Virus record (IMG/VR): IMGVR_UViG_2778261499_000007
From: a virus
Lineage: Duplodnaviria > Heunggongvirae > Uroviricota > Caudoviricetes
Reading direction: 5' to 3' (one strand)
DNA: 14,225 nucleotides
Made by a program: the position numbers and the translations under genes. Within the stretch, counting starts at the first letter, position 1; each line of letters begins with the position of its first letter. Below the pieces are notes generated by a model. It was not told the DNA's origin and did not search any database. It worked only from the letters and a program-made list of their open reading frames with translations. Positions 1 to 14,225 of the stretch are shown here, in pieces.

Positions 1-77
1 CCCCTCAGAGTGGATAGCTGCCAGTGTGGCGTAATTCAGGCCGCTATAGTGCTTTCCGTCATCCCAGCCAACCGCTA
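1..77. repeat. Terminal overlap copy 1 (identical to 14149-14225), marking a circular molecule
   Basis: Base-by-base comparison of both ends gives 77/77 identity. 77 is also a common assembler k-mer size, so this is most simply an assembly overlap and not a biological repeat. Confidence 0.9.
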
Positions 78-156
78 CACCTTCCATCTGTGAGAGCTCT
101 TTGTGCAGCTTATCCATCATGCGCTTGTCTATGGTGCAATGGACTTTCGGACTCAT
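1..156 (-). CDS. 5' part (codons 1-52) of a wrap-around 152-aa CDS; putative tail-completion / virion-morphogenesis protein (HK97 gp10-like)
   Basis: ATG at 156-154 is preceded by GGAG with an 8-nt spacer. This ATG overlaps the TGA (155-153) of the upstream gene as ATGA. The frame stays open through base 1 and continues at 14148. N-terminus: MSPKVHCTIDKRMMDKLHKELSQMEGVAVGWDDGKHYSGLNYATLAAIHSEG. The stretch ATLAAIHSEGWGDLPKRSFMESA resembles the yA..vEfG....P.rpF motif of HK97 gp10-type tail components (from memory). Confidence 0.6.
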   Translation of the reverse strand, partial: MSPKVHCTIDKRMMDKLHKELSQMEGVAVGWDDGKHYSGLNYATLAAIHSEG

Positions 157-956
157 TTGTTGATCTCCGTGATGTCATCGAGCAACATGTTGGCCTTATC
201 GATCATCGTTTCGTGGAACTCATTCGACACAACAGACTTATCACCTGCGGCAATCTTTCCAGCAGCCTCTCCCTGTGCATATTCCCCGCGATGCTTAGCC
301 CTGGTGGATTTCGTAGCAGCGTTGCCAGCGTTGCTACCCTCTTTAGCACTGTTAACAGCACCCTTTTGCTGTGTTTTGTTCACCTTCTTACTGTTAGTGA
401 AAACTCCGGCATTTTCGACCATCTTCACCTTGAAGGTGCGGAATTCTTCAAAAGTGCAATCAATAGTGATGCAGTCGCCAGAGGAAGAGCTACGCTTAAC
501 TTCACATTTCGTCATGATGAAGTTCTCAAGAAGTCCGGCATCTTCACTAACCAGGCTAACCAGCTGGCGCTTGTCTCTCATTTCCATAAGTGCCTGAACA
601 GCGGCAGCAGGGCGCATAGATTCACGGGGATTATCTGGATCAGTGTTCCGGTCGATGTAGTTCTCTTTCCGGATGATATGAGGGGAAGAGGTGATAATAC
701 CCGTAAAGCTGACAGATTTATCTTTAATGACGGCATGGTCTGACATGGTGGTGCCATCCTCGACCGCATAGCTCGATTTCTCGACAGGGAACGAATAGCT
801 GACATCAGAGATTGAGTCAAAGAAGATAGCCACGTTATCGGTATAGTTGAAGCCATCCATTATATTTTTGTTTTGTGAATATCCCCCACACATAACAGTG
901 AATGCAGGAGATCTCGACTCAGCTTGTTTTGCAGCTGTCAGAGCATCACTAGCCAT
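153..956 (-). CDS. Putative Dit-like / baseplate-type tail protein (267 aa from Met19 of the track ORF)
   Basis: GGAGG lies 10 nt upstream of the ATG at 956. The track start at 1010 is a TTG with no SD. SFPVEKSSYAVEDGTTMSDHAVIKDKSVSFTGIITS, followed by AAVQALMEMRDKRQLVSLVSEDAGLLENFIMTKCEVKR, matches the PvEdG..isDh...P..l...G pattern plus the later L..l....lv.lvt....y.nm.i....v.r pattern of Dit-like N-terminal domains (from memory). The C-terminal third is low complexity. Confidence 0.45.
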   Translation of the reverse strand: MASDALTAAKQAESRSPAFTVMCGGYSQNKNIMDGFNYTDNVAIFFDSISDVSYSFPVEKSSYAVEDGTTMSDHAVIKDKSVSFTGIITSSPHIIRKENYIDRNTDPDNPRESMRPAAAVQALMEMRDKRQLVSLVSEDAGLLENFIMTKCEVKRSSSSGDCITIDCTFEEFRTFKVKMVENAGVFTNSKKVNKTQQKGAVNSAKEGSNAGNAATKSTRAKHRGEYAQGEAAGKIAAGDKSVVSNEFHETMIDKANMLLDDITEINK

Positions 957-1150
957 ATTAAACATGCCTCCAAATTGGTCCACTTCATGGATTTGGCTAA
1001 ACTCGTGCAAGTAGCACTCATCCCGAGGGTGTTAAAGCCAAACCTGCAAAAGATGCAGGCAAAATAGAACTTATCGTTGCCCTGCTTAAAATCTGCAGAA
1101 AATACAGGGCAGTTATTCGTTAGAATCGCTTATAGCTCTTCCCGAGAGCG

Positions 1151-1402
1151 TTATTTTGCAAAACGATTATGGGCATTCAGGGCTTTTTTGCGGTCCTGGG
1201 CTTGTTTGCGTGCAATAAAATGTTCGAAAGTCTCGGCCCAGGTGCATTTATTATATTCACGGTATTTATGCATAGCCTGGCGGCTAACGTCATAGCAGGC
1301 GGCAAATGTGGAGATACGCAGGAATTCCGGCAGATCCTCGTCATCGATATGGATAATATCAAAAGGCACGTCATCACGGTCGCCGTATAAAACAATTTTC
1401 AT
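1151..1402 (-). CDS. Small HTH DNA-binding protein (83 aa)
   Basis: GAGGTG lies 6 nt upstream of the ATG at 1402. HTH-like stretch: ISTFAACYDVSRQAMHKY. The C-terminus is basic. The gene lies just outside the left inverted repeat. Confidence 0.55.
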   Translation of the reverse strand: MKIVLYGDRDDVPFDIIHIDDEDLPEFLRISTFAACYDVSRQAMHKYREYNKCTWAETFEHFIARKQAQDRKKALNAHNRFAK

Positions 1403-1436
1403 AAAAGACACCTCAAAAACTTAAGACGGGGATTAT

Positions 1437-1543: not shown

Positions 1544-2578
1544 TTATTTAGCCTTGGCAGCGGCGGCGGTGTTTTTAACACTCACTTTAACCACAACTTC
1601 AGGCATCATGTTCATGAAAGCATAAGAGGATTCAACGAAGATTTCGCGTTTGCCTCTGGACTCTTCCATATACATGAAAGCTTCACGTGCAGCGCCGTTT
1701 GCCAGCTTCAGGTTGCGAGCGCAAGGGCCGAAAAATTGAGTATAAACGCCCACCATATCGCCTAACGCATGCGGCTGGAACTGTGGGACTAGATAAGCAG
1801 TATTCTCTGGCAGACTATCCATTTGCACCACACGCAGGGCTAAGCCCGGAATGCGGAAGGTCGGGAAGCCCGGCAGAATATCCTCAGGGAACATCAGACC
1901 TTTATCGGTAATATTCTGATTGCCGAACAACAGCACTTTACGGAGCAGTTCATCAGTCTGAATTGCAGCAAAGAGCTCAGCACGGCAGAACAGGGTGAAA
2001 CCACGCAGAGCGCGAACGACACCACGCTGTTTAACCTTGCTCAGTGCAACCAGGTCCTGCAGCTGTTTAAGGATATCTTGAGCTAGATCCACTTCTGAAG
2101 TGGTTTGCTGTGCGCCCAGCAGTTCGCACACATTCAGTTCTTTACCCTTGGTGAGGATAATTTTGTTCTCAAAGAGAGCAAGCTGGCGTGCTTCTTCATG
2201 GGTCTGGCGTAAGCCTTCGCCCAGTTGAATAACACGACGAGCGGTTACAGACTCTAAATTCTCTTCGGAATCTTTGCCAGGAACGCGGATACCCTGCCAG
2301 TCAGAAGGATAAATAGCACTTGATGCGGCAGTGAACGCCATATCACCCGTGCCCGTTTCACGCTCATCTGCGGTAATGGTCGCCATCTGTTCACCGTAGC
2401 GCGGATACTGACCGAAAGCGGTTTGTTTCACCTGCCGAACTTTGTCATATTCAAATTTGAAGGTATTGCACAGAGCAGTAGTGTTGAAGATATCCATTGC
2501 TGAAATAATCTGATTATCCAGCGGGATGTCTTTAATCAGACCACACAGATCGCGAACTTCGAATTCTTTCTTAGCCAT
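1544..2578 (-). CDS. Major capsid protein, lambda gpE-like (344 aa)
   Basis: AGGAGG lies 6 nt upstream of the ATG at 2578. The track start at 2584 is a TTG. Size, position directly after a gpD-like gene, and overall sequence character fit the phage major capsid protein E family. It is followed by a strong terminator. Confidence 0.7.
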   Translation of the reverse strand: MAKKEFEVRDLCGLIKDIPLDNQIISAMDIFNTTALCNTFKFEYDKVRQVKQTAFGQYPRYGEQMATITADERETGTGDMAFTAASSAIYPSDWQGIRVPGKDSEENLESVTARRVIQLGEGLRQTHEEARQLALFENKIILTKGKELNVCELLGAQQTTSEVDLAQDILKQLQDLVALSKVKQRGVVRALRGFTLFCRAELFAAIQTDELLRKVLLFGNQNITDKGLMFPEDILPGFPTFRIPGLALRVVQMDSLPENTAYLVPQFQPHALGDMVGVYTQFFGPCARNLKLANGAAREAFMYMEESRGKREIFVESSYAFMNMMPEVVVKVSVKNTAAAAKAK

Positions 2579-2589
2579 TTCCAACCTCC

Positions 2590-2925
2590 TTATTGTGCAA
2601 CACGCAAATCGCCATTGCTGGCAGCAATAACAGCGGCTAAGCCGTCTTTATCCACGTAGGCCGGATTGATATAACAGCCTTTGTTGGCAACAACGATAAA
2701 AGCATCACCAACCTCAGCACGTTCTACAACCAGCAGCGGAGTTTTATCGGTGTGCGTTTCTTTAACGAAGGTCTCAACCTCGCCAGCCTCAGTCACCACA
2801 ACAACAGTGCCAGCCGGAATCTCAGCTTTAACTTTGTTTTTAATTTCAACGTCGCGAATACTAAATTGCTCATCTGCGGCGTATGAAATGATGTGTCCGC
2901 GTGTGCGGATAGTCATATCTCTCAT
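2590..2925 (-). CDS. Head decoration / cement protein, lambda gpD-like (111 aa)
   Basis: AGGTGA lies 4 nt upstream of the ATG. About 110 aa with IPAGTVVVV...G..v.....a.VGDAFIVVANKGCY, typical of decoration proteins. It sits immediately upstream of the capsid gene, as in lambda D-E. Confidence 0.6.
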   Translation of the reverse strand: MRDMTIRTRGHIISYAADEQFSIRDVEIKNKVKAEIPAGTVVVVTEAGEVETFVKETHTDKTPLLVVERAEVGDAFIVVANKGCYINPAYVDKDGLAAVIAASNGDLRVAQ

Positions 2926-3410
2926 TTGATCACCTGCGATTTAAATTAACTCCCCTCAAAGAGTTCCGGTATAACCTCTCAAACCGCGACAGGCTCGGGC
3001 CGAAAAGTTATGCCGGAAATCTAAAGGGGGATTGATATAAGGAGAGGGAGATAGCCCCGCACCGTAGCCAAGCGGGGGCTATTCCACATGGGGAAACCGA
3101 CAACAGTCGGATGATAGTTCACAGTATGGGTTACGGTTACTAGAGAGCACTATCACGAAAGGCACTCCCCCGAATCAGTTCAGGCTGCGGTCACATCAGC
3201 GGGGAAATACCTTTCGGGATAGCTACCCACACAGAAAACCCGCAAAAGAAAACTGTGTGGATAACTAGCCCAATAGGAGAATTAATCGACCACTCAACGA
3301 TGATCAGGGTAGTGTTATTTATAGGGCGGCACCGCTACCTGGTCGCCTTTACTTTGGAGGAAAATATGGCAAATCAAGATCTTCTCAAATGATATTGATT
3401 CCATACTATA
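2926..3410 (-). other. About 480-nt ORF-poor, hairpin-dense leader between the SOS promoter and the decoration gene (candidate cos/packaging region or regulatory RNA)
   Basis: Stems read directly: ATAGCCCCGC/GCGGGGCTAT (3051-3081); CCGAC/GTCGG; CCACACAG/CTGTGTGG (3228-3260); TCCGG.ATAAC/GTTATACCGGA (2966-3019, 11 bp with 1 mismatch); and a nested long hairpin at about 3140-3226. There is a GC-rich quasi-symmetric block, GGGCGGCACCGCTACCTGGTCGCC, at 3324-3347. Confidence 0.4.
3256..3264 (-). promoter_or_regulatory. Perfect DnaA box (TTATCCACA on the minus strand)
   Basis: The plus strand reads tgtggataa, 9/9. It lies within the 3' arm of the CCACACAG/CTGTGTGG hairpin and its 3' flank. Confidence 0.35.
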
Positions 3411-3428
3411 CTGTATATTATATCAGTA
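3409..3428. promoter_or_regulatory. LexA operator (SOS box)
   Basis: TACTGTATATTATATCAGTA equals TACTG-N10-CAGTA with an all-A/T spacer. This is the canonical E. coli-type CTG-N10-CAG palindrome. It overlaps the -10 element of the promoter below. Confidence 0.8.
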
Positions 3429-3445
3429 TTTACTCACATTGTCAA
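3417..3445 (-). promoter_or_regulatory. Consensus sigma70 promoter firing leftward toward the decoration/capsid operon
   Basis: The minus strand reads TTGACA (3445-3440), a 17-nt spacer atgtgagtaaatactga, then TATAAT (3422-3417). Both hexamers and the spacing are perfect. Confidence 0.8.
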
Positions 3446-3775
3446 CACCTTGATTATATAAATTCTAATAATTAGCGTAGTAACGGTATTTTCAGACCTC
3501 TATCAATCCCATCAATACGTCACCCCCACCCTTTAGATGCATACATCCGACCTACTTTGTAGGCTTGGCGTACTGCCAAGGTCGCAGCTATGCGACTCCT
3601 ATCTATCACCACTTTATAAAGCTTGATAGATATCTTTTGATCAATATCAATGTTTTCCGGGTATTTACCCGGCTATAGTTCGAATCAAGGAAGGGGAGCA
3701 TTGATAGAGACACCCAAAGGGGTGACTGAAAGTCACCTGGCATAGCCAGTGAAAGCACCCAACCGAACAAACAAA

Positions 3776-3790
3776 TCAACTTCTCGCAAA
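3776..3790 (+). promoter_or_regulatory. Conserved leader motif copy 1 (TCAACTTCTCGCAAA), 26 nt before an ATG
   Basis: Identical 15-mer to 4367-4381, at the same distance from the start codon. Confidence 0.6.
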
Positions 3791-3801
3791 AGGTGATAGT
3801 T

Positions 3802-3924
3802 ATGGGTATCAAGAACAGTGCCAGCGCATGGCAAAAGGCCAGGTTTCATCACCCACACATTGTTAAGGCAATTGAGGTGGTTGGAGTTTTAGCCCTGATG
3901 TTAGCTCTGTGTGTGGAGGTGTGA
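3802..3924 (+). CDS. Small protein, 40 aa, with a hydrophobic C-terminal segment
   Basis: AGGTGA SD upstream. Translation: MGIKNSASAWQKARFHHPHIVKAIEVVGVLALMLALCVEV. It is below the ORF-track size cut-off and was translated by hand. Confidence 0.4.
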   Translation: MGIKNSASAWQKARFHHPHIVKAIEVVGVLALMLALCVEV

Positions 3925-3925
3925 G

Positions 3926-4006
3926 ATGGGCAAAGGAGGCAAAGCATTTTTAATAGGTCTGGCTATCCTGGATGTTCTACTAATCATGATTAAGCGGAGT
4001 TTATGA
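3926..4006 (+). CDS. Small membrane peptide, 26 aa
   Basis: GGAGG lies 6 nt upstream. The start is 1 nt after the previous stop. Translation: MGKGGKAFLIGLAILDVLLIMIKRSL. Confidence 0.4.
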   Translation: MGKGGKAFLIGLAILDVLLIMIKRSL

Positions 4007-4025
4007 ACAGCATTGAGAGGAGTTT

Positions 4026-4286
4026 ATGACGGGGGCTAAAGATATCAGGAGACTGAGGGAAGAGCTGATAGCTGAAATTAAAGCTAAGGCAAAGCAAATG
4101 GAGATAGCCGCACAAATGGATGTAGCGGAACAGATGTACAAGATGGTTGAGGAGGGAACGCCACGACAGGTTATCGCTAAAACCTTCGGTGTGGGGATCG
4201 CCACCGTGCACAGAAGGCTGAAAGCCTATGCCGACTACCACAATATCGAGAGAAAGGAGGATGGGAGATTTAAGAAGAATAAATAG
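4026..4286 (+). CDS. Stand-alone recombinase-type HTH protein (86 aa; coiled helix plus a Hin/resolvase-like HTH, no catalytic domain)
   Basis: GTPRQVIAKTFGVGIATVHRRL aligns with Hin GHPRQQLAIIFGIGVSTLYRYF (10/22 identical, from memory). The N-terminal 40 aa is a charged helix. No serine-recombinase catalytic domain is present anywhere in the element. Confidence 0.55.
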   Translation: MTGAKDIRRLREELIAEIKAKAKQMEIAAQMDVAEQMYKMVEEGTPRQVIAKTFGVGIATVHRRLKAYADYHNIERKEDGRFKKNK

Positions 4287-4292
4287 TAGGAA

Positions 4293-4336
4293 CAGGCCCG
4301 AAGGGCTTAGCTTTAGCTAAGGTCCTATCAGGACTC
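4293..4336 (+). repeat. Inverted repeat IR-R (44 nt, partner of 1437-1480)
   Basis: Sequence: caggcccgaagggcttagctttagctaaggtcctatcaggactc. It starts 7 nt after the HTH gene stop. Confidence 0.9.
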
Positions 4337-4392: not shown

Positions 4393-5103
4393 ATGTTTAA
4401 AGGTCTTGTTGTTACGCTATTGGCTTGCATTGTATTTGGTCCATGGGTGTTAGTAATTGCTTTACCTATATTGCTGATCATGAGCTTAGGGAATGATATT
4501 AAAAAGCTGCATGCACAATATAAGGAGCATCCTGGAGCAGTCATAACAAGTCTGGTTATAGTCGCGGGGCTTATTGGCTGGGTCTACTTCTCTCTTCCCA
4601 CAGGAAATACAACTGCAAATGTAGAAGAGGCGAACGCACAGCATGAAGAAGTGGTTAACGTCGCCGACCTTACATGGGAGGACAGGGTAAAAGCATATAA
4701 ATATATTTATGGTGTGCTAGATTGCGATCTCTCTAAAGATATAGGATGCACAGATAAATACCAGATTCACGCCTGGCTGTGGAATCATGCAGAAAAAGGT
4801 GCTTGCAACCAGATTAAAGTGGCGGTTAACAGTGGGGCACCTACTGGGAAAAATAAAGATGTTCTGACGGTATGGTGCAAGGATGTAAAAGGCAATGATC
4901 GTTGGCTACAGATGCGCCACATGGACGGTGTAAGCATAGAAACTACACGAACGGCTCGATGGTATAACGGTGAACTCGTTCACGAAGCATGGCAGAATAA
5001 CGCCTGGATCACTGAGGGAACACTCCTGAATGTTGATATGGAAGCATTGAAGATGCTTAATGAGATGTACGGTGAAGCCGTAGAAACCTCTCCGATGAAA
5101 TAA
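4393..5103 (+). CDS. Membrane protein (236 aa) with N-terminal TM helices and a Cys/Trp-rich extracytoplasmic domain; function unknown
   Basis: Hydrophobic stretches: LVVTLLACIVFGPWVLVIALPILLIM and VITSLVIVAGLIGWVYF. Soluble C-terminal domain. Followed by a strong terminator. Confidence 0.6.
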   Translation: MFKGLVVTLLACIVFGPWVLVIALPILLIMSLGNDIKKLHAQYKEHPGAVITSLVIVAGLIGWVYFSLPTGNTTANVEEANAQHEEVVNVADLTWEDRVKAYKYIYGVLDCDLSKDIGCTDKYQIHAWLWNHAEKGACNQIKVAVNSGAPTGKNKDVLTVWCKDVKGNDRWLQMRHMDGVSIETTRTARWYNGELVHEAWQNNAWITEGTLLNVDMEALKMLNEMYGEAVETSPMK

Positions 5104-5113
5104 CCACACCTAC

Positions 5114-5140
5114 CAGGGGCCATCACGGCCCCTTTTTATT
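5114..5140 (+). terminator. Rho-independent terminator
   Basis: AGGGGCC-atcac-GGCCCCT followed by TTTTTATTT. Confidence 0.8.
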
Positions 5141-5200
5141 TATCCCCTATTTACACTCCTTTCAGTCCTGATCATCACTCCCTACCCCCTGATCAATTAA

Positions 5201-5251
5201 CCCCTATTTAAGGGGTATTTAATGGGTATTTAATGCCTATTTATTGATTTA
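5201..5251. repeat. Phased 11-bp repeats (SSSTATTTAWK, 4-5 copies)
   Basis: TATTTA starts at 5205, 5216, 5227 and 5238, an exact 11-bp period. There is a degenerate copy at about 5247 and an isolated copy at 5148. Confidence 0.7.
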
Positions 5252-6486
5252 ATCCGTTTTATGCCACAACCGCCCGGTTGACAGAGTAAGAGAGAGGGTG
5301 TAACCCTTTTTCGTAATACTAATAAAATCAATAGCTTAGCTCAATTGGCCTTTTCTCTGTTTTTGTCAAATTTAACATACCCTAAAAAACTGCAAAATCT
5401 GGCTGCAAGATTATCTGCAGCTGGATTTCTTACACCTCAATTTGTGGTATCACCCTGACTAGTTTGTGCATAAAATGAACAGTTTTTAACATTTCCTCTT
5501 CACCTGGTAACCACACAAAAAGCTAAAAACGAGGCACAGATAATCTTAGAGGCCTGTTTTCTTGTTATCACTCTGGAAACGTCGTAGAAGTGATTTTGAT
5601 GAAAGATGACCTACCCTATTACACCCCCATTTTTTGTTATCACAATTGCATCCTGTGCGGTGTATGGCTGTGTGCTGAAAGCGGTCTTGGGTGTGGGTGT
5701 CAGAAATATCCATTAGCGGTATTAATACCCGTCAGATGTTCGTCTGAGGTGCCAGGCAGGCGCTCCCCCACCTCCCTTTTTTCTTCTAACAATTCTCAAA
5801 TATCACACCACTGCCGACCACGTTACTACTCTGTTAATTCTTAAGCTTTGCTGTATGTTGTGCACATTATTTATTCAGGTGCGTGTACGTAAATTCTGGG
5901 CCTCCTTATCATGATTTTTAAATCAGATTTTGTAGTTCGGTTTCTTAGTGTAGATAAGATCTATTATGTTAAATGCAATTTTCCCAACCCTTCAAATCAA
6001 TGACTTACATGTAAGCATGCACTAACACCCCACACAGCACATTAGACGTATAGATGGCTATATCCCACATTTTTGATTGTTTTGTAGTCATTCCCCTGAT
6101 CATTTAACCAGTATAGTTTGTTCTTTGCAGACCACAAAATCGGAATTTACATCTGATTAACATAATCTGTTAGCATGATCACTATTACCCACACAACAAT
6201 AACCCCATGCAAGACTCTTCAGGCAATTTATCGGCGTGTTGGTGTGAACAGTCTTTCATGTTCTTTATGTTTTCATTGTCCTGTGTGAGGGAAGGATGGA
6301 CTGCCCCAGGGGCCACACTTATGATGCCCGGTCAACATAGCTATTGATAAAATCAACGGGTGTTGATCTGCATATTTCCCACACATGAGAGGAAATCAGA
6401 GCAAAGAGAGAGGAGAGAGGTTTGCTAGTCAAAATAGGTCAATTGACGGCTAATACAGAGTAAAAAATCAGATGCAATCACTCCCC

Positions 6487-6673
6487 ACCTGTTGGGATTT
6501 CCCGCACCTGTATAAGAATACAGTCATACTTTCCCGTTATACGGTCATACACATGATGGAATAACCTGTTGGAATTTCCTACAGGTTTAACCATACACAG
6601 GAGCTAACCTGTTGGAATTTCCTACTACTACCTGTCGGTATTTCCCACAGGTACCTGTTGGAATTTCCCACAC
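6487..6673 (+). repeat. Iteron array (5 x 21 bp, ACCTGTTGGAATTTCCCACAS); candidate replication origin
   Basis: Copies start at 6487, 6564, 6607, 6630 and 6653. The last three have a 23-bp period. Each contains an internal ACCTGT...ACAGGT dyad. An AT-rich flank (6674-6708) contains GATCTATTCTCTT on the minus strand (6683-6695), 1 mismatch from the oriC 13-mer GATCTnTTnTTTT. Confidence 0.75.
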
Positions 6674-6797
6674 TAATAGATAAAGAGAATAGATCAATAA
6701 AAAGAACTCCCCCTATAATCCCCCAACAAGGGGGGATGGGGAGGGATCAGAGAGTGGGGAAGGTTTTCTAAGGGAAAAGCTTAACCCACAAATGAAA

Positions 6798-7086
6798 GCC
6801 TAAAGAGCATTAGCGACTCTTTAGGCAATCTGTGTGTGGGGTGACAATGTATTCCATACATGACACGTCACCCAATTGTGTGTGGGGTGCTTACAGCACT
6901 TAAGCCTCTGGCTTAACCCTTCGGGCCTCTGTGTGGGAAGCGTAGTGCGATAGCACGTAGCTTTATAATGTGGAGTCCGGATAAGAGACTTCTGTTTCCA
7001 ATCCGGACCGTTTAAGCGAGGGATTCCGCTCGCCCGTGTATGCACACACGTAATAGGACGCTCAGAAATCGATTTTAAGGCCCAAA
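6798..7086 (+). other. Cluster of GC-rich hairpins (candidate structured ncRNA or single-strand initiation signal)
   Basis: GCCTAAAGAG/CTCTTTAGGC (6798-6826); GGGTGAC..GTCACCC with nested ATGTAT/ATACAT (6839-6873); CCC-TTCG-GGG context (6917-6925); GTCCGGAT/ATCCGGAC (6975-7008); GCGAG/CTCGC (7016-7033); AGGCCC/GGGCCT (7069-7086). TGTGTGTGGGGTG occurs twice (6831, 6877). Confidence 0.35.
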
Positions 7087-7231
7087 ACGGGGCCTACAGC
7101 AACCTAAACCATACTCCATAGTGCAATTGCATTGCCTGATGCTTAAATCGCGTTGTAGGGCATCTCATGAGGTTTGAGTTTAACACCCTCCAAAGTTTTA
7201 ACAAAAAGTGCTCTCCCTCCATTGTGGGCCA

Positions 7232-7261
7232 TTGACAATCTTATTGCATAAATGCTATAAG
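7232..7261 (+). promoter_or_regulatory. Promoter P1 (TTGACA-18-TATAAG)
   Basis: Read directly. Shares the ATTGACAAT motif with P2 and P3. Confidence 0.5.
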
Positions 7262-7360
7262 TGATTCTGGTTTTGACACGGTAGGGGCCATTAATAATGT
7301 TTACCCCTTTGCTGTGGACTTGCTTGCACCTATAGCACACCTAAATGATAATAATTCTCA

Positions 7361-7389
7361 TTGACAATTGGTTGACAATATGATAAGAT
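7361..7389 (+). promoter_or_regulatory. Promoter P2 (TTGACA-17-TAAGAT)
   Basis: Read directly. A second TTGACAAT lies 11 bp downstream, at 7372. Confidence 0.5.
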
Positions 7390-7424
7390 TATAAATAGGG
7401 GGAGAAACAGATCCGGAGGTCAAT

Positions 7425-7574
7425 GTGGAAATTACTGATGCAATAGCGATCATCAACCTGGCTGTACTGTGGTGCGGTGTTGCCTACATAGCCGGAGTAA
7501 CTGCAATCGACAATCTCGAAGAAAAAATGATAGATAAATACAAAAAGATTGTTGACAATTTGACGAATGTCTGA
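7425..7574 (+). CDS. Small single-TM peptide (49 aa, GTG start)
   Basis: GGAGG lies 5 nt upstream of the GTG. Translation: VEITDAIAIINLAVLWCGVAYIAGVTAIDNLEEKMIDKYKKIVDNLTNV. Not in the ORF track; translated by hand. Confidence 0.4.
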   Translation: MEITDAIAIINLAVLWCGVAYIAGVTAIDNLEEKMIDKYKKIVDNLTNV

Positions 7575-7580
7575 TAAAAT
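7552..7580 (+). promoter_or_regulatory. Promoter P3 (TTGACA-17-TAAAAT)
   Basis: Read directly. It lies inside the 3' end of the 49-aa ORF. Confidence 0.55.
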
Positions 7581-7630
7581 ATAAAGCATAGGGTAATTCT
7601 CATCATAGTGAATTTCCTTAAACAAAAATG

Positions 7631-7662
7631 CGGGGGCTTGTCTTAAGTTCCCGTTTCTTTTT
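7631..7662 (+). terminator. Intrinsic terminator / attenuator in the leader of the replication operon
   Basis: CGGGGGCTT-gtctt-AAGTTCCCG (9-bp stem including two G.U pairs) followed by TTTCTTTTT. It sits between P3 and the ATG at 7706. Confidence 0.55.
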
Positions 7663-7705
7663 AACCGTATATCGCACAGGCGGTGAGCTGACAGGAGATT
7701 GAATC

Positions 7706-7915
7706 ATGGCTAAAACCGGACCGATAAGCCAGCTGGTAAACTGGACTACTGACGAAATCGTCGAGAACGTGCTTAAAGGTAACTTTCGAAAAACTTCCGT
7801 TTATGCATTTATTCGTAAACACAAAGGGGAATACCCACATATTGAAGCGGCAATAGAAAAACTTAACTTTATCCGCATTGAGCGTGAGCTGGAAAGATAT
7901 AAACATCTACTTTGA
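7706..7915 (+). CDS. Small protein (69 aa), possible DNA-binding regulator
   Basis: AGGAG lies 8 nt upstream. First gene of the rightward operon. KTSVYAFIRKHKGEYP weakly recalls AlpA/Xis-type sTiYr.i..g.fP. Confidence 0.5.
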   Translation: MAKTGPISQLVNWTTDEIVENVLKGNFRKTSVYAFIRKHKGEYPHIEAAIEKLNFIRIERELERYKHLL

Positions 7916-7939
7916 TAAATAATCTTGGAGGATCATATT

Positions 7940-8326
7940 ATGGCAAATAACGATGAAAATTTTACTCCCTTTTTTAAACGTTTCATCAAATACACTTTTA
8001 AAAATCCGATTGCAAAAACTGCAACCAATAAAGAAAGATTTCACTTAAATGTGTTGGAGGTAACAATTTATGGTGAAATGGTAAGTTATTCTTTTAAGGA
8101 GGGTGAAGAAATAATTATCTCAGAGCTCTCGACGCAGACATTAGCAGACGATTATGATGTTACAGAGAAAACAGTAAGGTCGGCTATCAAAACATTAGAG
8201 GCTGCAGGTCTGATAAACGTTAAACGAGAACAGGGCAAATCGAATATCTACGAATTGCTAATTACCCCTGATCAGCTTGGCAAGATGTGCGATGAGCAGG
8301 GTATTAGAGAATATTTTATATATTAA
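7940..8326 (+). CDS. Winged-helix DNA-binding protein, short paralog of the Rep-like protein (128 aa)
   Basis: GGAGG lies 8 nt upstream of the ATG at 7940. The track start at 7925 is a TTG. It aligns along its whole length with the N-terminal 130 aa of the next protein (FTP.F..FI.Y.F..P.A....NK...ERF.L...E..IYG.MV...F.....I.ISE...LA.......VSAIK.LE.AGLI......G.SN.Y.LL.TPDQL..MC.E.G). Confidence 0.65.
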   Translation: MANNDENFTPFFKRFIKYTFKNPIAKTATNKERFHLNVLEVTIYGEMVSYSFKEGEEIIISELSTQTLADDYDVTEKTVRSAIKTLEAAGLINVKREQGKSNIYELLITPDQLGKMCDEQGIREYFIY

Positions 8327-8337
8327 TGGGGGGAACT

Positions 8338-9258
8338 ATGGCAGGAAATAAACTGGGGGCACCTTTTACCCCCTCTTTCGATTTCTTTATTCAGTATGAT
8401 TTTGATAAACCAGTAGCAACAACAATTTCTAATAAAAAGACTGGAACAGTTAAAGAGCGCTTCTATTTAACAGACTTTGAAATGTTGATTTATGGAAAAA
8501 TGGTGGGATTTCATTTTAACGGTGAGGGAATTTATATTTCAGAGCAAAAACTGGCAACTCAACTCAGAAAGGATCGCGGGAAAATAGTAAGCGCTATTAA
8601 ATCTCTGGAAAATGCCGGGCTTATTTCTAAAGATAGCCGGAAAGGCATGTCTAATAATTACAAATTGCTGAAAACCCCTGATCAATTGTTGGATATGTGC
8701 ATTGAGAAGGGCGTAAATATTCCAGAAGGCATCTTAGAGACTTTCGGAAAGACTGCCGCTAAAGTAGAACAGCCTCAGGAAGCCCCAAAACAAGCCACAC
8801 AGCAAGCTAAAAAGGCTAAAGTAGTGCAATTGCCTACCCAAGACACTAAAGCGCCTCAAATTAACGCTGTTAGTGACAAGCCACGCCGGGGCCGTCCTGT
8901 GAAAGATGTCACCGATGGAGGCTGGATCGTCCTGGGTGAGAGTGAGGCTAAAGGCATAATGCGATCACTGTGGGAAAGCAAATACAAAGATTTAAACAAA
9001 CGTCGCCCGATCCTTTTGTCAAAGATTCAGGAGGATTTTTACACCGCAGAAGAGGTAAGCCAACATAAAGGGAAAAGAGAGGGTGAAATCTGGAAACCGG
9101 AAGAATACTGGCATTTAACCAGACCTGTGTTTATTTTTGCAAATAAGCTTATTGGGATGGGATTTGAAATATTGTTGGATAAAACCTGCGGAGATTATCC
9201 CGAAATATTGTGGAGAAATGTTAGAAAAAATAAAAAAGGCATTTTAGAGTTTAAATAA
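8338..9258 (+). CDS. Putative replication initiator (306 aa): N-terminal winged helix plus a PRRGRP basic linker plus a C-terminal domain
   Basis: GGGGGG lies 4 nt upstream of the ATG at 8338, and the paralog alignment starts at MAGNK. The wHTH pattern is typical of plasmid/phage initiators. The iterons lie about 1.3 kb upstream. Confidence 0.55.
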   Translation: MAGNKLGAPFTPSFDFFIQYDFDKPVATTISNKKTGTVKERFYLTDFEMLIYGKMVGFHFNGEGIYISEQKLATQLRKDRGKIVSAIKSLENAGLISKDSRKGMSNNYKLLKTPDQLLDMCIEKGVNIPEGILETFGKTAAKVEQPQEAPKQATQQAKKAKVVQLPTQDTKAPQINAVSDKPRRGRPVKDVTDGGWIVLGESEAKGIMRSLWESKYKDLNKRRPILLSKIQEDFYTAEEVSQHKGKREGEIWKPEEYWHLTRPVFIFANKLIGMGFEILLDKTCGDYPEILWRNVRKNKKGILEFK

Positions 9259-9551: not shown

Positions 9552-10040
9552 ATGTTCAAATCTGATCTTTCTGATTCCCAATTTGAAAAACTGGTAGCAC
9601 TGCAGAAATATCTCCCCAGTGATGATCAACCAACACGACAGGCTAAACACTTATTAGTCGAGGGCTTTACCCCTGAATTCGTGGCGGAATATACAGGCGT
9701 TAAACTTGAGAAAGTCCAAAAACTATATAATGAGTCCTGGAATCCACGGTGTCGAGTTCCCCTCAGTGTCTACAACGAAATAGATAGAGATAGAAATGTC
9801 TTCGAAGATCGCCGCCGCAAATCTCTTTTAATGTGGAATTGTGGGATGAATATTGAAGAGATAGCAAAAGAATTAAAAGTAACCTGCTTTCATATCTGGG
9901 GCTTGTTGAGTGAAATCCTACCACGTAAGGAGCTTAATCAACGTTTGCCTAAGCCCGGTAGTCGTGCTTATCGCGAATTTATATTCATCTACCGCCGCCA
10001 TAGCAATAAAGTCCGGAAAGCAATGGCCCAGAAAGCCTAA
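9552..10040 (+). CDS. Protein with two HTH-like motifs (162 aa); function unknown
   Basis: GGAGA lies 7 nt upstream. HTH-like stretches: FTPEFVAEYTGVKLEKVQKLY and MNIEEIAKELKVTCFHIWGLL. Basic C-terminal tail. Confidence 0.6.
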   Translation: MFKSDLSDSQFEKLVALQKYLPSDDQPTRQAKHLLVEGFTPEFVAEYTGVKLEKVQKLYNESWNPRCRVPLSVYNEIDRDRNVFEDRRRKSLLMWNCGMNIEEIAKELKVTCFHIWGLLSEILPRKELNQRLPKPGSRAYREFIFIYRRHSNKVRKAMAQKA

Positions 10041-10113
10041 GTTTTATCTCTTCGATTTATTTATTTTCGACTCACTTTAACCCCTTCCGGGGCTCTAATT
10101 TAAGGAATTCCAA

Positions 10114-10557
10114 ATGTCTCAAATCGCTAAATTACTATCCCAGGTTATCAAAGCTTTCGACGCTGAAGATTCAAAAGTTCGCCAGGATCTTTTAGATGGC
10201 AAGTTTACCAACACCCTGGCATTTACCCGTGACAAAGAGCACTTCTTAAAACACAGACACCACGCTTTTGCTGAATGCAAGTCCGCTAATGGTGATGTTT
10301 TCTATGTCGATTTGGTGGTTATGGCATGTAGATTGTGGATGATTCAGGACCTTATGCGCCAACACGGTGATGATCCTCTTATCAGCATGTGGAACAGCGC
10401 CCAGGATGGCTTTGTGATTGCTGCCTTATCCAAATCAATGATTGAGGCAGAAGGGGCAAGCCTTCAGAACATGGCAGATCTCTTTGAAATAAGCGTAGGA
10501 ATGATGCAGACCATGCTCCAAGCTGTCAAACCTCTCAAACTGGTTAATCTTGATTAA
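10114..10557 (+). CDS. Hypothetical helical protein (147 aa)
   Basis: AAGGA lies 7 nt upstream. No recognisable motif. Confidence 0.55.
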   Translation: MSQIAKLLSQVIKAFDAEDSKVRQDLLDGKFTNTLAFTRDKEHFLKHRHHAFAECKSANGDVFYVDLVVMACRLWMIQDLMRQHGDDPLISMWNSAQDGFVIAALSKSMIEAEGASLQNMADLFEISVGMMQTMLQAVKPLKLVNLD

Positions 10558-10618
10558 GCTATTGATAAATAAGCACTCCCCATTTTTTTGGGGGGTGCAT
10601 CAATGAGAGGATATGCCT

Positions 10619-11002
10619 ATGAATATTGAAGAAATGATAGTTGAATTCGAAGATGGTGATTTCCTGGAAGATGGGGAGTTTAAATACTCCCGTTTTAAAC
10701 AGGCGTTATTTAGCAGTGAGGATAAACCACACGTTAGTGATCTTAACGACGATGATTTATGTCGTTGGGTATGCACCCGCTTATATGAGGATGGAAAATA
10801 TACAGGCCAAAACTTTCCAAATCTCTATTTCAAAGCACAAACATTTGAGGAAGGGCAAAGAGTGAAAAACCTGGTAGATAAAATGCTTTCAGCCGGATAT
10901 TTGCATAAAGAATTATTAAATCCTAAAGCTGAAAGCAAGCGCCATTATATTTTTGTGTGGTCTGTGGGGGATAAGTGCCCACTGAAGCGTAAAGGCAAAT
11001 GA
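10619..11002 (+). CDS. Hypothetical acidic protein (127 aa); tail assembly chaperone by position only
   Basis: GAGAGGA lies 7-8 nt upstream of the second ATG (10619). Acidic N-terminus. It sits two genes before the tape measure gene. Confidence 0.5.
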   Translation: MNIEEMIVEFEDGDFLEDGEFKYSRFKQALFSSEDKPHVSDLNDDDLCRWVCTRLYEDGKYTGQNFPNLYFKAQTFEEGQRVKNLVDKMLSAGYLHKELLNPKAESKRHYIFVWSVGDKCPLKRKGK

Positions 11003-11003
11003 T

Positions 11004-11189
11004 ATGAATACCTACGAAAAGATTTATCAAAAATTAAAAAGTGATAACAATGCTCCCGTCATCAAGGGCGGGGCTTCTTCCTCTGGTGACCTCTCAATCG
11101 AAGAGCTTGCGGAGAAATATAATATTGATAAAGAGGCCCTGAAAAGGGCTATTTCATTATCAAAATCTTTAAGACAAGGCGAGGTATAA
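11004..11189 (+). CDS. Hypothetical protein (61 aa)
   Basis: Tightly packed between its neighbours: it starts 1 nt after the upstream stop and its stop is 1 nt before the tape measure ATG. Confidence 0.5.
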   Translation: MNTYEKIYQKLKSDNNAPVIKGGASSSGDLSIEELAEKYNIDKEALKRAISLSKSLRQGEV

Positions 11190-11190
11190 A

Positions 11191-13293
11191 ATGGCAATGA
11201 AGGAAGTAGCCAAGCTAACAAACGTTATTTACTGGGATTCTGATAAATCCAGCTGGCGAAAAGAAGTTAAACGGCTTGAGGATTATAAAAAATCCTGGAA
11301 GAAAGCTACCGACGATATAGCTAAAGCGGATTTTAAATCTAATCAGGCTGTGCTCAGAACACAAAGAACACGCGCTAAGGTGGAAGAGCAGATCGCCAGA
11401 GCACAGAAGAAACAACGTGCTCAGGCTGTCAGCCGTCTGACCGGGGGCAATAATCCGGAGCTCTCCTCTATGCGCAAGTTCTATCAGCAGCAAGCCAGAG
11501 AGGCCGCCAGACAACAAAAACTGTTAGATCGTAGTGTTGGAGATGTTCAGCACAGAAAAGCACGTGTAGGGGCCAACAGTGCACGAATCAGCAGCATGTT
11601 TGATGGCTCCCTGGTTGCTCAGTTCCAATCCAGAATTCAGAGAGTTAATGCTGATTATGCTAAAGGGGCTATTAACCTGCAGACCTATAATCAGAAAATG
11701 GCCCGACTCAGATCTGAAATGAAGATGGCAACAGCAGAGGCCGGAAAATTTCAGAGCAGACTAGACAAAGCTGCGGTAGCAGGATCAAAGCTGCATGACA
11801 ACCTGGGCAAACTCAACTCCACACTAGGCAAGATAGCTATTGGCCTTACTGCCGCTGGCTGGGGTGTTCAGCGTGCTGTTAGTGGTGCTATGGGTAGCCT
11901 TGCAGATCGCAACAGTGCGTATTTCAGCTTAATGGCCCAGAACAAGGATGATAAAGAAAAAACTGATCAGCAGATGGCCTACGTCAAAAGAATCTCTTAT
12001 GACTACGGGATGGATCAGCGTGAGACTGAAGGCGGCTTTATGCGCTTTGCTGCAGCCACACCAAGCATAAAAGAGAAAGATAAGCAGGATCTCTTTGAGG
12101 CTATGGCGATTAAAGGCCGATCAGTGGGTGCTACCGCAGACCAACAGAACAGGGCTATCGTTGCACTAGGACAAATATATAGCAAGGGCGGTCGAGTGTA
12201 TGCGGAAGAGCTTAAGGGCCAACTTTCTGAAGCCCTGGCAGGTTCTCAGGTAGATTTCACTAAGGCCGCTATCGATGCCGGAGTCATCAAGAAAGAGGAA
12301 GAATTTAATAAAGCCCTTGAAGATGGCAAGATCACCATGGACAAGCTTCTTCCTTCTCTGGTGAAAATCTGGGGTGCTGCAAAAGAAACTAAAGCTTTTG
12401 CTGAATCCATGAAACAGCCAGAAGTAGCAATGCAGCGCATGAAAAACAGCTTTAACGAGCTGGCGATTCAGTTTATGGGTGTTGTGGATCCTGCAGATGG
12501 CGTTATTAGCTTATCTGAATCTCTAATCTCCATCTTCGAAGACCTCACCACTGATATGGACGGCAGCGGGAGCGCGGCAAAACAGTTCGGTGAGGCAGTC
12601 GGGGCTGCCATGCGGGAGATCATGTATTGGGTAGGCTTCGCTAAGGGATATATCGAGATTAAGGCTAAAGAGTTCGGCATGACCAGTGAGGAAGTCGGAG
12701 GATGGATCGGCAAGCTGGTTGTTGCAATCGCAGGTCTGAAGATCATCGGCACACTTCTTTCTCCGTTTACCGGACTGATTTCACTTGTCACACAGCTGAT
12801 AGCCTTGTTAGGTAAAATCCCTGGTATGAGCAAGCTTCTGGCTTCTGCCTCAGGTGGAACGGCAACAGGAGCAGCGGTCATCAGTGCAGGATCTAACGCT
12901 GAAAGAAGTTTCATTGATGGCAAGACGCAGGAAATGAGTAAGGAGAACTCAAAACAGGGTGCTTTGTTTGAGCTGGGAAGATTTGTTAGCAATGCTGGCG
13001 CACTATTCACACCTGGCGGTGATACTGGTCCTTTGTTCGATCAGGTCAGAGGCTGGTTTAATAAAGGGCCAACATTGACAGTAGACACTGGCATCAGACC
13101 AACACCAACGGGTGGCATAGCTATCCAGAATGGTGGATATCAACCAGTCCAAGTAAATGTAGCCCCACAAGGTGAGATTTCCGGCAAATGGGAGATAACC
13201 ATCGATGAGGGGGGAATTGCCAGGGTAATTCAGAAGGAAGTCAGCGATCAGTTGGATTGGAAAGCCACGCAGGAATCTAACCAGCTTTTCTAA
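11191..13293 (+). CDS. Tail tape measure protein (700 aa)
   Basis: GAGG lies 6 nt upstream. Long coiled-coil N-terminus. Conserved tape-measure core: ADQQNRAIVALGQIYSKGGRVYAEELKGQLSEALAGSQVDFTKAAIDAGV. Gly/Ala-rich hydrophobic segments: GKLVVAIAGLKIIGTLLSPFTGLISLVTQLIALLG. Confidence 0.85.
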   Translation: MAMKEVAKLTNVIYWDSDKSSWRKEVKRLEDYKKSWKKATDDIAKADFKSNQAVLRTQRTRAKVEEQIARAQKKQRAQAVSRLTGGNNPELSSMRKFYQQQAREAARQQKLLDRSVGDVQHRKARVGANSARISSMFDGSLVAQFQSRIQRVNADYAKGAINLQTYNQKMARLRSEMKMATAEAGKFQSRLDKAAVAGSKLHDNLGKLNSTLGKIAIGLTAAGWGVQRAVSGAMGSLADRNSAYFSLMAQNKDDKEKTDQQMAYVKRISYDYGMDQRETEGGFMRFAAATPSIKEKDKQDLFEAMAIKGRSVGATADQQNRAIVALGQIYSKGGRVYAEELKGQLSEALAGSQVDFTKAAIDAGVIKKEEEFNKALEDGKITMDKLLPSLVKIWGAAKETKAFAESMKQPEVAMQRMKNSFNELAIQFMGVVDPADGVISLSESLISIFEDLTTDMDGSGSAAKQFGEAVGAAMREIMYWVGFAKGYIEIKAKEFGMTSEEVGGWIGKLVVAIAGLKIIGTLLSPFTGLISLVTQLIALLGKIPGMSKLLASASGGTATGAAVISAGSNAERSFIDGKTQEMSKENSKQGALFELGRFVSNAGALFTPGGDTGPLFDQVRGWFNKGPTLTVDTGIRPTPTGGIAIQNGGYQPVQVNVAPQGEISGKWEITIDEGGIARVIQKEVSDQLDWKATQESNQLF

Positions 13294-13395
13294 TGTCCAC
13301 TCTGTGGATTTGAGTTCTACTCAAACCTGCATAGCAGGCACTGATATTGTGATCAAAATCAATAAGTTAGCCTGACCGGACAAACTCCAGGCAAG

Positions 13396-13432
13396 AAAAA
13401 AGCCCCTAAGTGTTAACAAAGGGGCTCTTCTC
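13396..13432. terminator. Bidirectional terminator between the convergent operons (best on the minus strand)
   Basis: AGCCCCT (13401-13407) / AGGGGCT (13420-13426), preceded by A6, so the minus strand reads stem plus TTTTTT. On the plus strand it is followed by CTTCTCC. Confidence 0.65.
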
Positions 13433-13456
13433 CGGTATCCTTTTGATGCGGGGCAA

Positions 13457-13504
13457 AACCTGCTAACAAAAATCAACCTCTCGCGAGACTAATGTTAGCA
13501 GGTT
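13457..13504 (+). other. 12-bp perfect hairpin whose 24-nt loop carries leader-motif variant 3
   Basis: AACCTGCTAACA / TGTTAGCAGGTT. The loop aaaatcaacctctcgcgagactaa contains TCAACCTCTCGCGAG (13473-13487) and the palindrome TCTCGCGAGA. Confidence 0.6.
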
Positions 13505-13822
13505 GCCGGAAGGTAAGTCAACTCCGGTCTATAAACCTTAAAGCGACTATAAAATCGCCCCGCCAATTGTGATGATCCGACCTTTGAGGCGGGTCCGGTG
13601 CCCAGGGGGTGCAGTGATGCACAAACCAGGCAACGATAAACAGGCTAACAGTGATAGCGGCGCTCAATCAGCGCACTAAATCCTAACCAGTCCGGGAAAG
13701 AGGCTGGCTCTATCGACCGCTCATGCACGGGACAATGCATACCTGATAAAGGATTCTCACAAGGGACCAATCGCGAGAAAGAAGTGGAAAGGGGCTGATT
13801 TGTGGTGTATCACTACGGCCTC

Positions 13823-13846
13823 AAAAGACATCCTATTGTCTTTTTT
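13823..13846 (+). terminator. AT-rich hairpin plus T-run (weak plus-strand terminator abutting the stop of the wrap-around gene)
   Basis: AAAAGACA-tcctat-TGTCTTTT followed by TT. Confidence 0.35.
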
Positions 13847-14148
13847 CAGCCTCTACCTACATTTGACCAATACTTGATTGCACCGATCAAATCATCATAG
13901 TGGCGCATTGCATCATTGAAGCCTTTATAGCTTGCCCATTGTGGTGAAACCTTGTTATTGCTGAATTGCCCACTAATCAGGATAGTCTCCAAAATGTCGG
14001 CATATCGCTTACCAATACGCTTTCTGACGGCCTCAGAGCTCCCACCCTTTACGATTGCATTAATCAGGGCTTTTGTGTGTCTCAGGCTCTCATAGAGCAT
14101 TGCAGCGTGGGCAGATTCCATAAAGGAGCGCTTAGGCAGATCACCCCA
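13846..14148 (-). CDS. 3' part (codons 53-152 plus stop) of the wrap-around CDS
   Basis: The ORF track lists only 13846-14121, starting at an internal Met. Hand translation shows the frame is open upstream through 14225 (...AVGWDDGKHYSGLNYATLAAIHSEGWGDLPKRSF-MESAH...). Confidence 0.6.
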   Translation of the reverse strand, partial: WGDLPKRSFMESAHAAMLYESLRHTKALINAIVKGGSSEAVRKRIGKRYADILETILISGQFSNNKVSPQWASYKGFNDAMRHYDDLIGAIKYWSNVGRG

Positions 14149-14225
14149 CCCCTCAGAGTGGATAGCTGCCAGTGTGGCGTAATTCAGGCCGCTATAGTGC
14201 TTTCCGTCATCCCAGCCAACCGCTA
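14149..14225. repeat. Terminal overlap copy 2 (identical to 1-77)
   Basis: Same comparison as for copy 1. Confidence 0.9.

Follow-up and report, generated by a model that had tools for sequence, protein, structure and literature searches.

Tape measure gene and circular replicon

We analysed a 14,225-nt stretch of DNA (the window; IMG/VR virus record IMGVR_UViG_2778261499_000007) in which the open reading frame (ORF) at positions 11191-13293 is, judged by its family matches, an intact gene for a tape measure protein (TMP). The first 77 nt of the window are also its last 77 nt, and the replicon is therefore a circle of 14,148 bp, of which the TMP gene takes up 14.9%. This element is a plasmid-state, extrachromosomal replicon of Escherichia coli and Shigella. 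One strand carries, in order, a gene of 111 aa, the capsid gene (346 aa), a gene of 86 aa, the Dit-like gene (285 aa) and g152, a gene of 152 aa that crosses the circle junction. The other strand carries a helix-turn-helix (HTH) gene of 86 aa and a gene for a variable membrane protein; after the ORF-poor region of 2.6 kb with its iterons come one or two Rep-like genes of the winged-helix type, then four small genes and the TMP gene (Table 1).

A preliminary description of the window had called a confident 700-aa TMP making up 15 percent of the genome of a satellite-sized element, and all three points were borne out by the protein matches and replicon sizes given here. Beyond that description, we found that the element is a plasmid, that it has matching capsid, tube-initiator and g152 genes, and that all four proteins point to rV5-like phages.

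The TMP was matched to PHROG 5255, 'tail length tape measure protein' (E=2.3e-153), and to four further TMP PHROGs. The full-length protein gave no Pfam match as a query, probably lost to the HMMER filters; residues 201-500 queried alone matched PF20155 TMP_3 at 58.3 bits (cut-off 41), and the TMP of a 98%-identical relative matched the same family at full length. A match to TIGR02675 tape_meas_nterm was also observed (33.7 bits, cut-off 21.35). Phage phiTE is a member of the Vequintavirinae, and the TMP chain of its solved virion (9cuy_W) was matched at E=2.7e-21, as was a second solved TMP (9ndy_F). The preliminary description had proposed a comparison with the helper TMP, which we ran against Vequintavirus as the helper type: the TMP of phage CarlMeissner was 26% identical over residues 4-502 (E=7e-19), with 700 aa in the element's protein and 778 aa in each of the three Vequintavirus TMPs compared.

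The two proteins were collinear from end to end by MAFFT alignment and hydropathy, sharing the N-terminal NPE..MRKFYQQQA, the central TMP domain, the hydrophobic/Gly-rich segment and the C-terminal IDEG. The approximately 78 residues missing from the element's protein correspond to deletions of about 25, 23, 13 and 7 aa, all within the first 200 residues, the coiled-coil ruler. This shortening is kept throughout the family, whose TMPs have 698-707 aa. Within the family, residues 1-175 and 550-700 were almost invariant and the most variable stretches were 176-200, 251-400 and 451-550. Two length classes (699/700 and 706/707 aa) were set apart by a single 7-residue indel, or one heptad, after residue 70, a pattern that suggests the ruler may evolve by heptad steps. 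The site of this indel (residue ~70, window positions 11398-11400) coincides with the 25 extra residues in the helper-type TMP.

A 14.2-kb contig from an SRA run encodes an identical TMP. A protein search with the TMP gave 412 relatives, of which the best 120 were 91-98% identical and came from E. coli and one Shigella boydii. Our figures for family size rest on these best 120 of the 412 (clusters, with the longest contig of each): the longest contig measured 13,218-14,279 bp in 113 of the 120 clusters listed, with a median of 13,562 bp and a coefficient of variation (CV) of 1.5%. Complete circular RefSeq plasmids of 13.2-13.7 kb had the same whole gene order. Of 5,426 complete E. coli genomes, 7 contained the family, in each case as a circular plasmid and not in the chromosome, and PLSDB typing classed the family plasmids as non-mobilizable. 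Their hosts came from cattle, chicken, feral pig and humans on four continents, and a scan of JGI metagenomes found only four close family members. A literature search, with subscription journals mostly outside its reach, returned no description of the plasmid family.

Enlarged forms were observed. A 30,105-bp contig (NTNY01000053.1) carries an insertion at 13452-21041, between the TMP and g152 genes, with two aminoglycoside phosphotransferase (APH) genes of the streptomycin-resistance type, a DDE transposase and TetR-family genes. This insertion roughly doubles the replicon, making it too large for a small capsid, and the plasmid can therefore be inherited independently of its usual size. Another form, NZ_CP043822.1 (39,610 bp, from a complete-genome record), is a head-to-tail trimer of the element with three matching places, and may be either a real multimer, relevant to headful packaging, or a long-read assembly artefact.

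Table 1. Coordinates of the features of the window; TMP regions are given in residues of the protein.
Feature	Position	Strand	Description
g152, 5' part	1..156	-	start codon and N-terminal 51-52 aa; start overlaps the tube-initiator stop
Tail tube initiator, Dit-like	153..1010	-	285 aa; PF21821 Dit_like, E=2.5e-25
86-aa protein with HTH-like motif	1151..1411	-	between the capsid and tube-initiator genes
Major capsid protein	1544..2584	-	346 aa; PHROG 29, E=5.5e-21
Candidate head decoration protein	2590..2925	-	111 aa; directly upstream of the capsid gene; by position only
86-aa resolvase-type HTH protein	4026..4286	+	HTH domain only; PF02796 HTH_7, E=3.4e-6; divergent from the capsid operon; candidate regulator
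Five 21-nt iterons	6485..6671		candidate vegetative origin, within the ORF-poor region 5104-7705
Two paralogous winged-helix replication-initiator-like genes	7925..9258	+	133 and 310 aa; PF13730, PHROG 270/678
Two element-specific conserved genes	9552..10557	+	162 aa (two HTH-like motifs) and 147 aa; upstream of TMP
Two small genes	10613..11189	+	129 and 61 aa; closely linked to the start of the TMP gene
TMP	11191..13293	+	ATG start, 700 aa, intact ORF; matches to PHROG 5255, TMP_3, TIGR02675 and phiTE TMP
TMP, conserved N-terminal coiled-coil 'ruler'	residues 1-175		
TMP, TMP_3 domain	residues about 246-428		
TMP, hydrophobic/Gly-rich segment	residues about 500-570		
TMP, conserved C-terminal end	residues 550-700		
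g152, 3' part	13846..14148	-	C-terminal 101 aa; 152-aa morphogenesis gene spanning the circle junction
Assembly overlap	14149..14225		77 nt identical to positions 1-77; circular contig

Companion virion genes and a proposed satellite

Vequintavirus was the best phage match for all four of the recognisable virion proteins (capsid, TMP, tube initiator and g152), and the identities given here for structural proteins refer to the Vequintavirus phage CarlMeissner (Bas48). The tube initiator was 50% identical to the protein annotated 'tail tube initiator' (E=1.5e-66) and also matched that of phiTE (9cuy_K, E=1.4e-34). Its core (about 27-245) aligned as conserved with the helper type, with divergent N- and C-terminal extensions. 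The baseplate hub of the solved phiTE virion has the tube initiator as its first hexameric ring, and the TMP is part of the baseplate model (9CUY; PMC11972413). Gp78 (BhuB) of the Vibrio phage ICP1 belongs to the same Pfam family, PF21821, and the element's tube initiator is its counterpart.

The capsid protein, which has no scaffold (delta) domain, was 24% identical to and collinear with its CarlMeissner counterpart over residues 5-337 (E=5e-10). Only 29 relatives of this protein emerged when 1.84 billion representatives were scanned exhaustively with HMMER, the closest outside the family being 43% and 30% identical and located on two metagenomic contigs (L018 and L019, respectively); no relative was found among the GTDB species representatives. 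The g152 protein matched PHROG 222, 'tail completion or Neck1' (E=2.3e-28), and was 43% identical to bas48_0011 (E=8e-39). Its homologue in phiTE-like phage contigs lies between the portal-adaptor and head-completion genes. An AlphaFold2 (AF2) model of g152 (pLDDT 90) had no fold match in the PDB, and no such protein is present in the phiTE connector model.

Two smaller genes accompany these. The 111-aa gene followed by the capsid gene reproduces the decoration-then-capsid order of rV5-like phages and ICP1, and its product is conserved in the sister lineages described below (41-66% identity); comparison with decoration proteins gave an hhalign probability of 4%, which is not significant. The 86-aa protein between the capsid and tube-initiator genes had no family match in profile searches and is kept at the same position in three sister lineages (L008, L014 and L018; 34-51% identity).

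The block made up of the capsid gene with a ~110-aa gene before it, and a small gene and the tube initiator after it, recurs in four sister lineages (L008, L014, L018 and L019), the two metagenomic contigs above included, with capsid identity falling from 82% (L008) through 51% (L014) to 29%. The g152 gene follows the block in L008, L014 and L018. A TMP was confirmed in one sister lineage only, L014, where a convergent gene encodes a protein 30.5% identical over residues 370-699 and matching PHROG 5255. In L019 a convergent 545-aa partial ORF has a TMP-like composition, with no homology to the TMP of the element or the helper type and no PHROG match. Because it is retained across lineages down to 29% capsid identity, the capsid/tube-initiator block is a stable, long-lived design and not the accident of one plasmid.

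The same conservation bears on whether the structural genes could be functionless cargo on a cryptic plasmid, left by a decaying phage or phage-plasmid. The gene set is incomplete, as such a remnant would be, and the ORF-free stretches 2926-4025 and 5104-7705 amount to about 26% of the circle. These stretches are themselves 94-100% conserved, though, and the ORFs are all intact in more than 100 relatives. Pairwise comparison with five family plasmids gave ratios of nonsynonymous to synonymous divergence (dN/dS) of 0.03-0.06 (g152), 0.04-0.11 (capsid protein), 0.11-0.19 (tube initiator) and 0.12-0.17 (TMP, at dS 0.26-0.62), so that all four of the recognisable structural genes fall at 0.03-0.19 at substantial dS. 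Purifying selection acts on every gene of the element. With the block also kept in lineages at 29-82% capsid identity, decay is disfavoured, and we consider it very improbable.

No terminase, portal, protease, scaffold, sheath, tube, baseplate wedge, fibre, holin, lysin or integrase was found among the window ORFs by Pfam, PHROG and other profile searches, and the only recombinase-related signal on the element was the 86-aa protein with an HTH_7 domain alone. Searched against phages as a concatenated query, the nine remaining ORFs had no phage homologue, and no nucleotide similarity to phages was found across the whole element. Because virion, packaging and lysis genes are absent, the element can be neither an autonomous phage nor a phage-plasmid. 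We ruled out both an autonomous mini-phage and a phage-plasmid, since nearly all essential virion genes are lacking; a plasmid replicon is present, but the phage gene set comprises four or five structural genes. The preliminary description had treated the element as helper-dependent, and this is supported by the incomplete virion gene set and by four proteins lying nearest Vequintavirus.

From these relationships we infer an rV5-like helper. A 137,565-bp record filed as an E. coli 'plasmid' (CP057073.1) has the genome size of an rV5-like phage, and its annotated TMP shows 25% identity, as the Vequintavirus matches do; it comes from pooled cattle faeces and is probably a phage in the carrier state or a co-assembled phage genome.

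We propose, with a probability of roughly 60%, that the element exploits virulent rV5-like phages as a plasmid-borne satellite and gives rise to chimeric tails, and as part of this proposal its TMP is probably functional. The 14.1-kb circle would replicate as a plasmid through the winged-helix Rep and the iterons and would make no virion on its own. On infection by a virulent rV5-like (Vequintavirinae) myovirus, it would contribute diverged structural proteins, four or five in number: a capsid protein forming the shell of a small head, a probable decoration protein, g152 serving to complete head or tail, the TMP, and the ring of the Dit-like tube initiator. The helper would provide portal, scaffold, protease, terminase, tube, sheath, the remaining baseplate, fibres and lysis. 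The element's TMP and tube initiator would then displace the helper copies inside a slightly shorter tail that is otherwise helper-built, as occurs in the PLEs of Vibrio (elements that resemble phage-inducible chromosomal islands). If capacity is scaled as T^1.5 from a T=13 head of 137 kb, a T=3 head would take about 15 kb, near the genome size of the element, which would be packaged into small capsids. The interpretation in the preliminary description is thus partly supported. The TMP belongs to a coherent, conserved structural gene set on an undescribed E. coli plasmid family, satellites that build chimeric tails being already known.

Replication, control regions and small genes

The ORF-poor region (5104-7705, 2.6 kb) contains no ORF above 84 aa, and its positions 5251-6500 were 85-100% (mostly 92-99%) identical across five family plasmids. 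It shows no phage DNA similarity and no Rfam family, and is probably an origin and control region, though unusually long. Many CCCACAC/TGTGTGGGG motifs were observed within it. Three near-consensus sigma-70 promoters (about 7231-7580) point towards the rep genes, and the region also contains a hydrophobic ORF of 49 aa (7424-7573), which is annotated by RefSeq in relatives. The two Rep paralogues, which carry a 68-nt repeat at 8234/8644, are unique to the window; relatives carry one rep gene, of varying allele. Both the rep region (7750-9250) and the 236-aa membrane-protein gene (4393-5103) are swapped for unrelated alleles in sister plasmids, with flanks more than 90% identical. The variable membrane-protein gene had no PADLOC defence match.

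Upstream of the capsid operon lies a perfect TTGACA-17-TATAAT sigma-70 promoter with an upstream TG (3445->3417, - strand). It faces the 111-aa/capsid operon from 490 nt upstream, within the conserved ORF-free leader 2926-4025, and is about 580 nt from the oppositely oriented 86-aa HTH gene (4026-4286), whose product may be its regulator. A comparison of upstream regions with the extended -10 promoters of rV5-like phages gave no convincing common motif. A 45-nt inverted repeat (89% complementary) forming stacked hairpins was observed just after the capsid operon (1437-1481) and just after the HTH gene (4292-4336), with a third partial copy at 6911-6928; it looks like one terminator-like cassette used in both orientations. 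Between the TMP and g152 genes, which converge, positions 13501-13750 were 99-100% identical in five plasmids, above the level of coding DNA. This intergenic region (13294-13845) is a candidate pac site or regulatory site; its RNA fold z-score was only -1.5 and it had no Rfam match. Rfam (gathering and E-value thresholds) and tRNA searches of the whole window returned nothing credible.

The four small genes ahead of the TMP gene form two pairs. The 162-aa and 147-aa proteins were 98-100% identical within the family, with no phage homologues and no Pfam, PADLOC or NCBIfam matches. The 129-aa and 61-aa genes occupy the positions of the tail assembly chaperone (TAC) and an 82-aa ORF in the helper phages. 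The 129-aa protein gave an hhalign probability of 0.3% against the rV5 and ICP1 TACs, sequence searches of the PDB were empty, and its single-sequence AF2 model was unusable (pLDDT 49.5). The 61-aa protein had weak HTH matches.

Several observations weigh against the proposed satellite. Neither a pac site nor a small terminase or TAC could be recognised on the element, and IMG/VR viral contigs scanned with the TMP alone and with the family alignment contained no relative, giving no evidence of encapsidation. The size of the replicon is not strictly constrained, as an 18.6-kb contig and a 15.5-kb metagenome contig were found in addition to the 30-kb variant and the 39.6-kb trimer. The case for an rV5-like helper consists of 24-50% identities, and g152 is about equally distant (43-48%) from several Vequintavirinae-like groups, leaving the true helper and its TMP length uncertain. 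Lastly, the promoter at 3445->3417 could give constitutive expression, which would fit a role in defence only just as well.

In such a role, the diverged capsid, TMP, tube initiator and g152 would act as dominant-negative decoys that poison rV5-like assembly, protecting the bacterial population, with the plasmid itself not packaged. The perfect promoter ahead of the capsid operon, the lack of a recognised packaging function, pac site or viral-fraction relative, and the persistence of oversized variants would all suit a defence plasmid, and interference with tail assembly is a known strategy, as with Tai and Rta (PMC11364771; PMC12987554). A full-length capsid protein with a conserved upstream partner and a coherent TMP/tube initiator/g152 set, under strong purifying selection across lineages, nevertheless exceeds what decoys need. 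Genome size is also very narrow (CV 1.5%) despite accessory and rep genes being swapped for unrelated alleles, and PADLOC found no defence family on the element. We regard defence alone as unlikely; since interference and transmission coexist in PLEs, it is moreover not exclusive of the satellite proposal.

Tail length and comparison with known systems

It is well established that the length of the TMP sets the length of the tail. The rV5 tail measures 121 nm (PMC3606486), or 0.155 nm per residue of its TMP, and on this scale a 700-aa ruler predicts tails of about 105-109 nm. Such tails would be ~12 nm shorter than those of rV5 because the TMP is without ~78 residues of the helper-type N-terminal ruler. 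The preliminary description had suggested that the element may assemble tails of its own length; this is plausible given a TMP ~78 aa shorter yet collinear, together with an own tube-initiator ring where the tail tube starts, and we infer the remodelling step itself, in which the element's TMP would be incorporated into tails and change their length.

The element could also be a satellite whose TMP serves something other than tail length. The protein might serve as a conduit for ejection or for crossing the periplasm, matched to the DNA or capsid of the satellite, or it might be a variant resisting an anti-TMP inhibitor of the element or host, as PLE11's own TMP escapes its inhibitor Rta (PMC12987554). 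Small proteins of 86, 69 and 61 aa could be such inhibitors, the central regions of the TMP are the most variable within the family with almost invariant ends, and family length variants are only 7 aa apart. Against this, no Rta-like function was identified, and the 78-aa shortening is family-wide and by the TMP-length rule must alter tails if the protein is incorporated. A role apart from length therefore seems to us improbable.

If the proposed plasmid satellite is real, E. coli gains a tractable counterpart of the Vibrio PLE/ICP1 system, in which a plasmid hijacks virulent, therapeutically relevant phages and re-engineers both head and tail. Replacement of the tail core (TMP and tube initiator) would be a general strategy of satellites, with an origin independent of chromosomal islands, and the family would offer a natural experiment in which to follow how a tail comes to select its TMP and initiator ring. 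Phages like rV5 are widely used in typing and biocontrol. The plasmids could lower the efficacy of such biocontrol or therapy phages and could spread by transduction, and one variant already carries the transposon region with streptomycin-resistance (APH) and TetR genes. The element would also add to a very short list of plasmid-form satellites, of which a 2025 review counts one (PMC12282955).

The element's structural genes were closest to those of the Vequintavirinae (rV5, CarlMeissner/Bas48, FFH2, phiTE), in which the capsid, TMP, tube initiator and g152 are homologous to and collinear with the element's and local gene order agrees, with decoration before capsid and TMP beside tube initiator. 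These are, however, autonomous virulent phages of 130-142 kb (Vequintavirus about 137 kb) with TMPs of 778-811 aa, whereas the element has ~10% of their genome size and is without their replication, packaging, sheath, tube, fibre and lysis genes.

The preliminary description knew of no satellite carrying a TMP, a statement now outdated by the PLEs (PMC12987554) and by the EPIPs of Mycolicibacterium aichiense (PMC12822802), in addition to putative tmp genes in some phage-inducible chromosomal islands of the capsid-forming kind (cf-PICIs). The EPIP is a small satellite that is reported to encode a TMP and a capsid protein, and for which altered tail length was observed by electron microscopy (bioRxiv Dec 2025, PMC12822802). 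Compared by description, it resembles the element in carrying a TMP and a capsid gene on a small satellite. It differs in its actinobacterial host, its temperate siphovirus helper, its serine integrase and small terminase, and its longer, variable tails. The cf-PICIs, found in Enterobacteria and others, share with the element an own major capsid protein. They are integrated, induced by temperate helpers of about 40 kb and equipped with a complete head module of portal, protease, connectors and small terminase (PMC12772148), whereas the head-module genes of the element are limited to the capsid, a possible decoration protein and g152, on a plasmid without integrase.

The closest parallel at the tail is with the PLEs of V. 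cholerae, which encode a TMP, a TAC and the baseplate hub protein BhuB that are 20%, 20% and 41% identical to those of ICP1 (Mathur, Boyd et al., Nature 2026, PMC12987554). In PLE virions the PLE TMP and BhuB replace those of ICP1, and the PLE TMP, being shorter by 95 aa, makes the tails 10 nm shorter; the same paper mentions putative tmp genes in PLE-like elements and in some cf-PICIs (PMC12987554). The virion module of ICP1 is homologous to that of rV5, whose homologues are cited in the ICP1 annotation and whose capsid protein is 33% identical, so that a PLE parasitises, and the element would parasitise, a large virulent myovirus with an rV5-homologous module. Both systems have a diverged TMP (20% identity for PLE, 26% for the element) that is shorter than the helper's (by 95 aa and about 78 aa, respectively), and both have a diverged Dit-like hub protein or tube initiator of PF21821 (41% and 50%). 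By this analogy the element would work like a PLE at the tail.

The element is nonetheless neither a PLE nor a cf-PICI. As described, PLEs are chromosomal with an integrase, excise when ICP1 infects, reuse the ICP1 capsid protein and have a recognisable TAC, whereas the element is a free plasmid with Rep and iterons, without integrase, with its own capsid and g152 and with no recognisable TAC. We see about an even chance that it is the first known member of an undescribed satellite class, one made up of autonomous E. coli plasmids that exploit virulent rV5-like phages and form particles with their own capsid shell and, inside helper-made tails, their own tail core, joining the strategies of cf-PICIs and PLEs in a 14-kb replicon able to gain resistance transposons.

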